This document shows positions 55,001-58,000 of a stretch of 64,000 nt of DNA, one piece after another. Made by a program: the position numbers. Source of the stretch: Escherichia coli (lineage in GTDB: Bacteria > Pseudomonadota > Gammaproteobacteria > Enterobacterales > Enterobacteriaceae); the NCBI RefSeq assembly GCF_045037415.1, contig NZ_CP173438.1, one strand, 5' to 3'. Every line of letters starts with the position of its first letter. The first letter of the stretch is position 1.

Positions 55001-58000
55001 GTGAGGGAAGCTGCTAAGAACACTATATATAGGGGGTATGTTTGGGATTCACTGCAAGATAGTGTGAAACTGGCCCTCTTGCAAGTGCATAACTTTGTGG
55101 ATAACTCAGGAAGGAAAAAGTGGCTTCCGCGCACCTTAGGTCAGACAAGGTGTCCGGGAAAGTCAATGGGAAGAGAAAAATTTGTTAAAAATAACCGTTC
55201 GGTGAATTCTTGAACGGTAAAATAGGATAGGTAAATTGATATAGATGGTTTATTAATCTTGTTGCTAATGATTGCCAAAATTGATCTAGGCACAAGTCGT
55301 CACATAATCTGATGTATCTGTTGTGGTCAATATATAAGCGAATGTAAGCGATTGTTGAGTCGGAAATGGTTGTTTTATATTCGGTTATTGTTAAATACTA
55401 AGCCAATTTGTTACTTTTGCATATATTATAAGAATATTATTTATTGCTTTAATTCAGTTTAAATATAACCGACTTACCTTAAAGTTATTAATCTGAATTG
55501 TGATGCATCTAAATTAATCATCAAATAATAACAAAGTGGTTATTACATCGGGGGCAGAATTTACAAAAGAAAAATACCCTATATCGCATAATGCGATTAA
55601 ATACGCCATCTTATAGAAAATGATGGTTAGATGAATATGCGGATTATCTCTCTACGCAAGGAGTATTTATCTTTACTCCCGTCAATGATTGCATCTCTTT
55701 TCTCTGCTAACGGTGCCGCAGCGGTCATTGATTCATGCCAGGGATATGATATCAAAGCGAGCTGTCAGGCCAGCAGGCAAAGCCTTTCGGGTAATATACA
55801 GGACTGGAGCATCGCGGATGGACAATGGTTGATTTTTTCGGGTATGGTCAATAATGCCAGCGGTGGCGCAGTATTTTTGCAGCACAGTGCTGAATTTACG
55901 ATATCACCACAAAATGAAACAGGGATGACCCTGTTTGCTGATAACTCGGTTAGTGGCGAATATAATAATGGCGGGGCTATCTTTGCTAAAGAAAACTCAA
56001 CGATAAATCTTGCGAATGTTATTTTCGACAGTAATGTTGCAGGAGGCTATGGCGGAGCAATCTATTCTGCCGGTACCAATGATACCGGTGCCGCCGATTT
56101 ACGAGTCACTAACGCCGTATTTCACAATAACATCGCTAATGACGGCAAAGGCGGTGCAATTTATACCATCAATAATGACGTCTATTTAAGTGATGATGCT
56201 TTTAATAATAACCAGGCATATACATCAACAAGTTATAGTGATGGGGATGGCGGCGCCATTGATGTTACGGATAATAGTACGGATAAGACACATCTTTCAG
56301 GAAAAACGATAATTAATAATACCTCCTTTACCAATAACTATGCAGAAGGTTATGGCGGAGCAATTTATACCAGCAGCACCACATCCCCGTATCTTATTGA
56401 TATTTCTGTTGATGATAATTATGACCAAAACAATGGTGTGATGATTGATGAAAATAACAGCGCCTCGGGATATGACCATTCGGCGACGGCAGCGGCGGGG
56501 GGCTTTATGTATATCGGTCATAGTGTGGCTGAATTTAACATTGCCGCCGATAAAACGCTGGTAATAGGCAATACCAGCAACGATGGCGCGATTGATTCTC
56601 TTGCCGGAACGGGAGTCATCGTGAAAGAGGGAGCGGGAGAGTTAGTCCTCAATGCCGACAATAATGCGTTTACCGGCGAGATGAGTATCCAGAATGGCGA
56701 GGTGACGTTGGGGCGCAGCGATGAGTTAATGAATGTCGGCGACACGCACTGTCAGAGCGATCCGCAGGATTGCTTTGGTCTGATGGTCGGCAGCACTGTT
56801 CATTCTGAGTATCAGGCAGAACTGAATGTTGGCAATACACAACAAACGTTTGTGCACTCATTAACCGGTTTTGCTAATGGCATTTTGAATATCGACGCAG
56901 GCGGCAATGTTACCGTAAACCAGGGCGGTTTTTCCGGCTCGATTCAGGGTGAAGGACAGTTGACGGTAGCGCAAGATGGCAGCTATCTCCTGACAGGGGC
57001 GCAGTCGATGGCATTAACCGGCGATATTGTGGTGGAAGATAACGCCGTATTGTCGCTGGCGGGGAATCAGGCCGATTTACGGGCAATGCAGAGCGATCCG
57101 CAATCGATCGTGCTAAATGGCGGAGTATTGGATCTCTCTGATTTCACCACCTGGGATGGCGATAGCTCATACAATGACGGTCTGCAAATCAGCGGCAGCG
57201 GGGGGACAGTGATTGGCAGTAATGATGTCGTTGATATCAGCAGTGGCGATGATTTACATATTGGCGGCAGTGATGCCAGCCAGAATGGCGTTTATGTCGT
57301 CATTAATGCGGGGGATCAGCGCGTAACGCTGGCGAATAACAACGGTTATCTCGGTAATACGCAAATCGCCTCCGGTACGCTTGAAGTCAGCGATAATTCG
57401 CAATTGGGGGACACAAGTTACAACCGTTCAGTGATCTTCACAGATCCCCAACAACACAGTGAAATGGATGTGACGACTGATGTTGACACTCGCTCGGCTA
57501 CAACAGGTCAGGGCAGGAATATTGAAATGCGCGCTGATGGCGAAATACACGTTGAGGATGGCGTAGATACGCAATGGGGCGGGTTGATGGCGGATAGTAC
57601 CGGGCAACAACTGGATAGCGTAAGCACGTTGACTAAAAGTGGCGGCGGGACGCTGGAGTTGACCGCCAGCGGCACTGCGACGTCTGCGGTACGTGTGGAA
57701 GACGGAACGCTAAAAGGTGAAGCGGAGAATATTATTCCTTATGTTTCTTCACTGTGGGTGGGGGAAGACGGTGTTTTTGAAACCGGGCAAAATCAGGATA
57801 TTCGCTCAATCGATGCCACCTCTGGCGGCGATATCGACATAACCGATGGTACTGTGTTGCGATTGACGCAGCAGGATACGAACCAGGCGCTGGATGCCTC
57901 GCTGTTTAGCGGCGACGGTACGCTGGTGAATGCCACCGATGGCGTGACGTTGACAGGTGAGCTTAATACCAACCTTGAAACTGACAGCCTGACTTATCTT

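Follow-up and report, generated by a model that had tools for sequence, protein, structure and literature searches.

The window analysed here is a 64,000-nucleotide stretch of Escherichia coli DNA (NCBI RefSeq assembly GCF_045037415.1, contig NZ_CP173438.1), in which the autotransporter gene yfaL (ehaC, plus strand) and the ribonucleotide reductase gene nrdA (minus strand) diverge from a common spacer of 681 bp. The larger part of this spacer is an extremely AT-rich block, which is probably the regulatory DNA of an adhesin module acquired long ago (table 1). The whole spacer is 100% identical in strain SK1144 and in several hundred other complete E. coli genomes.

An earlier inspection of the DNA without database searches (hereafter the sequence-only reading) described a strongly AT-rich region at 55200-55630. 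The G+C content of this region is 0.297, compared with 0.522 for the whole window, and the G+C profile of the window places it in the lowest 0.12% of all 431-bp segments. The lowest value for such a segment in the 64 kb (0.288) is found at 55171-55601. The A/T tract which that reading had cited, TTATAAGAATATTATTTATTGCTTTAATTCAGTTTAAATATAAC, is present as an exact match. In detail, the region contains ten A/T-only runs of 8-13 bp, TpA steps account for 12.7% of the AT-rich block against 4.3% across the window, and the minimum G+C over 150 bp of the spacer is 0.207. Only the span has to be corrected, as the block proper starts at about 55220 and positions 55200-55217 are conserved nrd upstream DNA.

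The window has 18 intergenic regions of 100 bp or more; in four of them, all shorter (arnB-ais, nudI-yfaZ, yfbL-yfbK, and yfbM-yfbL, with G+C contents of 0.29-0.34), the AT content matches or exceeds that of the whole yfaL-nrdA spacer. Since other divergent spacers of the window are equally AT-rich but much shorter, the block is distinguished by its length and not by its composition.

In order to reveal the origin of the block, one genome per species was examined in about 80 Enterobacterales, using the N-terminal 250 amino acids of NrdA as query and taking 10 kb upstream. The order gyrA(-), ubiG(+), nrdA(+) is found in about 70 species, with ubiG ending 350-600 bp before nrdA, and this arrangement, including its short spacer, is the ancestral one. 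The two genes are separated by a yfaL homologue in only 4 of the ~80 species loci, namely those of an E. coli-labelled genome (L003), E. albertii (L004), a Pseudocitrobacter metagenome-assembled genome (L009, 69% amino acid identity), and Enterobacteriaceae RIT691 (L024, 55%). Both yfaL and the AT-rich block are absent from this junction in Citrobacter, Klebsiella, Enterobacter, and others. The spacers of the genera lacking yfaL have a G+C content of about 0.39-0.45 (lowest 150-bp value typically 0.34-0.36), and the block cannot be aligned to them.

The boundary of the insertion is sharp. The GAAGAAATCAGC core of an inverted-repeat motif at 55195-55217 is the outermost element common to the nrdA upstream regions of other genera, and sequence identity collapses directly past this motif. 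The nrd-proximal 262 bp of the window are 96% identical to K-12, 98% to L003, 89% to E. albertii, and 84% to Pseudocitrobacter. The respective values for the 417 AT-rich bp are 86%, ~65% over half of the length (score 33, against 13.8 and at most 17 in shuffles), ~60% over a part (score 33), and random level. Because the nrd-proximal identity is high across lineages while that of the block drops, 55220-55636 belongs with yfaL and not with nrdA, and the edge of the inserted module is located at about 55217-55220.

The horizontal acquisition proposed by the sequence-only reading is thus upheld by an insertion of yfaL and AT-rich DNA, in 4 of ~80 species, into an otherwise conserved junction. It also agrees with the flagging of the K-12 locus as foreign by GIST, Nakamura, and Price (PMC3661553 Table 1). 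The block is present in 5416 of the 5426 complete E. coli genomes and is core to the species, which indicates that the acquisition was ancient and that the module is no strain-specific island. In Mixta and several Pantoea species (L033, L057, L065, L070, and L072), unrelated DNA of 3-8 kb is inserted between ubiG and nrdA, with one to six open reading frames (ORFs) of at least 150 codons per insertion, which suggests that genes have been gained repeatedly at this junction.

The yfaL gene is intact, as had been claimed: an uninterrupted ORF of 1252 amino acids aligns end to end with K-12 YfaL (83% amino acid identity). Its start is the one annotated by PGAP, and it is preferred because the ATG at 55631 lacks conservation, K-12 having TTA at this place. 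An N-terminal signal peptide, a repeat-rich passenger, an autochaperone, and a C-terminal beta-barrel are all found in this one ORF, as in AIDA-I-type (type Va) autotransporters. The Pfam matches are the Autotransporter beta-domain PF03797 (residues 991-1230), AC_1 PF18883 (796-906), PATR PF12951, and Chlam_PMP PF02415. Coding G+C is 0.39-0.45 over the first ~900 bp and about 0.50-0.57 thereafter. One study reports yfaL to be a positively selected core gene (PMC9110714). For a biofilm phenotype, yfaL required the insertion of a constitutive promoter, and the gene is classed among the adhesins cryptic in K-12, in line with the suggestion of the sequence-only reading that the adhesin may be silent under laboratory conditions.

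Within E. coli, the identity of the block to the window is bimodal: 979 complete genomes show at least 95%, 4363 show 80-90%, and 74 are intermediate. The 80-90% class is the K-12 type, about 86.5% identical to the window. The window therefore carries the minority allele (~18% of complete genomes, against ~80% for the K-12 type). In the block, the two alleles differ by 58 substitutions and 1 gap column (K=0.15). Identity to K-12 per 100 bp is 95-100% in nrdA and the nrd promoter, 79-92% at 55200-55599, 97% at 55600-55699, 63-90% in the passenger domain of yfaL (55637-57900), and 87-99% in the autochaperone and barrel. Synonymous divergence (dS) is 0.09 for nrdA and 0.33-0.55 at the start of yfaL, and it is saturated (>1.4) in the central passenger. 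The ratio of nonsynonymous to synonymous divergence (dN/dS) in yfaL is 0.06-0.26, an indication that both alleles are functional. The passenger represents an ancient dimorphism within one species, and a third yfaL allele (89-90% amino acid identity) is found in L003 and E. albertii but in none of the 5426 complete E. coli genomes.

A 13-bp segment of the nrdA 5' leader, GGAATTCTTTCCG in K-12, is deleted in the window ~20 nucleotides upstream of the nrdA start. The segment is present in K-12, E. albertii, and L003 and missing from 986 of the 5426 complete E. coli genomes. As this count is close to that of the window-type block (979), a single haplotype seems to extend from the nrdA leader into the passenger; the deletion and the block appear linked, as judged from the matching counts. 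All Escherichia-type spacers keep a length of 681-705 bp and a G+C content of 0.34 although their sequences no longer align.

Several elements were recognized in the spacer. The block contains four full sigma-70-like sites and 20 -10-like hexamers, which places it in the top 0.5% of the window: the full sites are ~12-fold denser than the background (4 in 417 bp vs 0.77 per kb), and the hexamers compare with a mean of 2.8. One candidate promoter, TTGATC-16-CATAAT, is directed toward yfaL, and its -35 overlaps the only GATC of the spacer. The ATTGAT cores of the AAATTGAT repeats recur at equivalent places in the divergent alleles. On the minus strand, the conserved island TGGTCAATATATAAGCGAATGTAAGCG forms a promoter-like sequence toward nrdA (TCAACA-18-TATATT, 55358->55329). 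The yfaL start follows the palindrome ATCGCATAATGCGAT at a distance of 39 bp, and the palindrome forms a small hairpin in the RNA fold; in K-12, TATAAT for CATAAT in its centre breaks the symmetry. To our knowledge, no protein is known to bind it. The island at 55600-55700 consists of the last 37 bp of the spacer and the signal-peptide codons of yfaL, and is the approximate equivalent of the GadX peaks of K-12, which would presumably fall at about 55621-55682 if their coordinates refer to NC_000913.2 (offset 1978). Otherwise, the search for inverted and direct repeats returned only short low-complexity A/T pairs, and a terminator scan of the spacer found no terminator-like site.

The orthologous spacer of K-12 has been studied experimentally. 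The 534-bp promoter island 2342143_534, at yfaL/ypaB, is bound by H-NS according to all chromatin immunoprecipitation (ChIP) studies compared (Grainger, Kahramanoglou, Oshima; PMC3661553 Table 1), and promoter islands bind RNA polymerase yet yield little full-length RNA (PMC3661553). By genomic systematic evolution of ligands by exponential enrichment (SELEX), the K-12 yfaL/nrdA spacer was found to include an H-NS site in vitro, and the RpoD holoenzyme was found to bind there at a promoter TTGATC-16-CATAAT (PMC3946193). In ChIP-exo, two GadX peaks were located at the yfaL start (2342146-2342207; PMC4918353 Suppl. Table 3). H-NS is also cited as a repressor of nrdAB, that is, of the class Ia ribonucleotide reductase genes, and for this reason the spacer is not solely a matter of yfaL. 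The sequence-only reading had regarded the region as H-NS-silenced and proposed a comparison with published ChIP data; the binding part of this claim holds for the K-12 orthologue (86% identical over the AT-rich part) in all ChIP sets compared and in SELEX. The arnB/ais spacer is likewise in the published list of H-NS-bound promoter islands.

Taken together, the block is best explained, with a probability of about 0.8, as AT-rich control DNA that came with an adhesin module in the distant past. It would serve as a platform from which H-NS keeps yfaL silent, and it abuts, and probably influences, the nrdAB control region. According to this interpretation, 55220-55636 would be the 5' regulatory DNA of a module whose insertion at the ubiG-nrdA junction of the Escherichia lineage dates far back. 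Its extreme AT-richness would produce many -10- and -35-like hexamers, at which RNA polymerase could bind in many places, and would at the same time offer H-NS a preferred platform. The H-NS coat would then keep yfaL transcription very low in laboratory conditions (xenogeneic silencing), and expression would need counter-silencing, for instance by an AraC-type factor such as GadX, which is bound at the yfaL start in K-12. From the H-NS occupancy we infer that H-NS causes the silencing of yfaL, in the window allele too. An H-NS filament abutting the nrdAB upstream activating region would also plausibly explain the reported repression of nrdAB. The locus has the low G+C over several hundred bp, the high density of sigma-70 sites, and the lineage-specific gene of an H-NS-bound promoter island, and it shows neither enrichment of a high-affinity nucleation motif nor the helical phasing that would indicate intrinsic curvature.

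A number of results weigh against this explanation. The four promoter-like sites do not exceed the 3.4 of composition-matched dinucleotide shuffles, and the -10-like hexamers likewise show no excess over such shuffles, so the promoter-island property is a consequence of AT-richness. The H-NS 10-mer TCGATAAATT, with at most two mismatches, is not enriched in the window (61 matches vs 56.6 expected), and near the block there are only three weak matches, within 55199-55288. No phasing of AA/TT at 10-11 bp, used as a proxy for intrinsic curvature, was detected in the block, where the value is under the shuffle mean. Nucleation motif and curvature are common correlates of H-NS targets and not strict requirements. 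The K of the spacer (0.15) lies between the dS of nrdA and that of yfaL, which fits weak constraint or a mosaic history. The occupancy data refer to the K-12 allele and not to that of the window, the accessible literature holds no report of yfaL de-repression in an hns mutant, and yfaL expression was unchanged in a GadX knock-out under the published condition (PMC4918353).

The AT-rich DNA could instead be part of the nrdAB upstream regulatory region, with Fis, IciA, and AT-rich elements for cell-cycle control, and not be associated with yfaL. nrdAB regulation is described as needing an upstream AT-rich sequence together with Fis, DnaA, and IciA sites; H-NS represses nrdAB, and the minus-strand promoter-like site in the TGGTCAATATATAAGCGAATGTAAGCG island is conserved across alleles. 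Such an assignment is nevertheless quite unlikely, because conservation upstream of nrdA ends at ~55217 across genera and alleles, with no co-conservation of the block and nrdA, and because the divergence of the block tracks yfaL. Moreover, the genera without yfaL run nrdA from 350-600 bp with no comparable block, and the conserved T/A-rich tract of nrd lies outside it. It is less probable still that the block is weakly constrained leftover DNA shaped by AT-biased mutation, on which H-NS and RNA polymerase bind passively with no regulatory role. The high sequence turnover (14% between the two E. coli alleles, near-random against the third Escherichia allele and Pseudocitrobacter), the composition-predicted level of promoter-like sites, and the lack of H-NS motif enrichment and A-tract phasing would all fit. 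On the contrary, the length and G+C content are kept across alleles that cannot be aligned, the two E. coli alleles differ by hardly any indels, and conserved islands remain at 55324-55350, in the ATTGAT repeats, and at 55600-55636. The spacer is also kept in 5416 of 5426 genomes, with a divergence below the synonymous divergence of the adjacent yfaL.

It is highly improbable that the region encodes an unannotated product, be it a small RNA, a small protein (for example YpaB), or a leader acting in cis, or that it works as a Dam-dependent phase switch like that of agn43. ypaB is annotated in the K-12 spacer, the SELEX promoter would give a leader of ~320 nucleotides, and yfaL is listed in a preprint with genes whose GATC sites are differentially methylated. 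The fold of the putative proximal leader (55560-55700) is more stable than that of shuffles, but modestly so (z = -2.25). In 54700-55900, neither strand matched an Rfam 15 covariance model at E<=1; all small ORFs have at most 50 codons, those within the block at most 36, and none is conserved; and the ypaB equivalent lies outside the block and has no ATG. The control region of agn43 (flu), with its Dam/OxyR switch, is also that of a homologous self-associating AIDA-type autotransporter that affects biofilm. A switch of the agn43/pap type, with at least two close GATC sites, was rejected for yfaL, as this defining feature is absent: the 681-bp spacer contains a single GATC.

The sequence-only reading was correct in its observation, and its interpretation is supported. 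The block as an AT-rich, H-NS-bound control region is already known for K-12, and the novelty is limited to details, namely the boundary, the two haplotypes, and the physical properties kept across alleles. The spacer of the window and the promoter island 2342143_534 (Panyukov & Ozoline 2013, PMC3661553) are orthologous loci with the same flanking genes, length, whole-spacer G+C (0.34), and excess of promoter-like sites; the allele of the window differs in the 14% divergence over the AT-rich part, the change of the ypaB start from ATG to CTG, the change of TATAAT to CATAAT in the palindrome, and the linked 13-bp deletion in the nrdA leader. An AT-rich upstream region beside a lineage-specific gene for a surface protein is likewise found in H-NS xenogeneic silencing of acquired AT-rich genes (Navarre et al. 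2006, as cited in PMC3946193). The AT-rich, H-NS-occupied, low-expression pattern, which for yfaL rests on K-12 data, is shared with other cryptic adhesin loci of K-12, such as ycgV and fimbrial spacers (PMC3661553 Table 1). As distinct from these cases, yfaL reaches a G+C of ~0.50-0.57 past its first ~900 bp, is core to E. coli, and shares its spacer with the essential and highly expressed nrdAB.

The locus is thus a textbook-style AT-rich, H-NS-occupied control region beside an anciently acquired adhesin gene, and offers little beyond confirmation. The useful additions are the boundary at ~55217, the two deeply divergent haplotypes (~18% and ~80%), each with its own passenger allele, and the contact of the block with the promoter of an essential operon. 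These would guide the design of reporter or allele-swap work on yfaL and nrdAB. The physical constancy of the spacer (~690 bp, 34% G+C, and a sharp nrd edge in three alleles diverged beyond alignment) would fit selection for an H-NS-coated buffer, which either shields the essential and cell-cycle-regulated promoter of nrdAB from an adhesin module that evolves fast or couples the two, though such selection is on balance unlikely. If it were true, the two major haplotypes of E. coli might differ heritably in the expression of yfaL, nrdAB, or both.

Table 1. Features of the nrdA-yfaL locus and other AT-rich spacers, in positions of the window.
Feature	Position	Strand	Basis or remark
yfbM-yfbL spacer	14494-14595		short, very AT-rich
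yfbL-yfbK spacer	15574-15704		131 bp, G+C 0.29
arnB-ais spacer	34199-34445		247 bp, G+C 0.287
nudI-yfaZ spacer	35540-35796		short, very AT-rich
yfaE	51197-51451	-	ORF list/annotation
nrdB	51451-52581	-	ORF list/annotation
nrdA, divergent neighbour	52670-54955	-	ORF list/annotation
nrdAB leader, core promoter, and upstream activating region	54956-55194	-	sequence reading; 96% identity to K-12
13-bp deletion in nrdA leader	54978/54979		comparison with K-12
NrdR boxes	about 54991-55002, 55020-55035, 55049-55067		layout after PMC12176259
nrdAB -10 TATCTT	55061->55056	-	sequence reading
nrdAB -35 TTGCAA	55084->55079	-	sequence reading
DnaA boxes	55084-55092, 55096-55104		repeat family D2
ypaB equivalent, 47 codons	55070-55213	+	CTG for ATG start; outside AT-rich block
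nrd T/A-rich tract	55170-55199		conserved, outside AT-rich block
Inverted-repeat motif CCGTTCGGTGAATTCTTGAACGG (CCGTTC..GAAGAAATCA..GAACGG)	55195-55217	none	cross-genus alignment
AT-rich lineage-specific spacer tied to yfaL	55220-55636	none	G+C 0.288 over 417 bp; corresponds to K-12 promoter island
Two copies of AAATTGAT(A/C)TAG, 45 bp apart	55233-55289	+	repeat family D1
Sigma-70-type promoter candidate TTGATC-16-CATAAT, toward yfaL	55281-55308	+	promoter scan; same hexamers in PMC3946193
Single GATC of the spacer	55283-55286
Conserved island TGGTCAATATATAAGCGAATGTAAGCG	55324-55350	none	alignment of window, K-12, L003, E. albertii, and Pseudocitrobacter
A/T tract TTATAAGAATATTATTTATTGCTTTAATTCAGTTTAAATATAAC	55426-55469	none	exact string match
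Perfect 15-bp palindrome ATCGCATAATGCGAT	55584-55598	none	sequence reading; RNA fold
Conserved island, 97% identity to K-12	55600-55700	+	identity profile
yfaL/ehaC, AIDA-I-type autotransporter adhesin, 1252 aa	55637-59395	+	Pfam; PGAP name in identical locus
yfaL-ubiG spacer	59396-59534		REP/BIME-like repeats
ubiG	59535-60305	-	ORF list/annotation
gyrA	60404-63031	+	ORF list/annotation

Beyond yfaL, the yfaL-ubiG spacer differs from K-12 by a 13-bp indel at ~59510. In SK1144 it also carries IS1397 (IS3 family; L001 10513-11861), which the window lacks.

On the nrdAB side, the positions of the regulatory elements rest on reading of the DNA and on reviews; the operon is under DnaA, Fis, and IciA regulation (PMC8203912). 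Within this region lies the equivalent of ypaB (K-12 b4605). The existence of ypaB as a real gene is cast into doubt, since its start is lost in the window, RefSeq lists it solely where the spacer is of the K-12 type, and no Pfam family matches it.

In Escherichia and Pseudocitrobacter, two DnaA boxes precede the -35 of nrdAB, and the core promoter and leader (54956-55217) essentially cannot be aligned with their counterparts in Citrobacter, Klebsiella, Enterobacter, Kosakonia, Kluyvera, and RIT691 (L005-L032, about 9640-10000), where the leader contains TTATCCACA boxes as an inverted pair. The two promoter types share only the NrdR box/-10 region, the T-rich tract, and the GAAGAAATCA motif. 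It seems that the lineage of Escherichia has rebuilt or replaced the promoter of this essential operon.

In 235 plasmid records there is a 115-bp segment with 77% identity to the -35/DnaA-box module of nrdAB (55066-55180; L083 2501-2615), and the stretch TTGCAAGTGCATAACTTTGTGGATAACTC is identical in both. These plasmids are judged P1-like from one example, in which the match is located just upstream of a gene for the DNA polymerase III theta subunit (hot-like) and humD.

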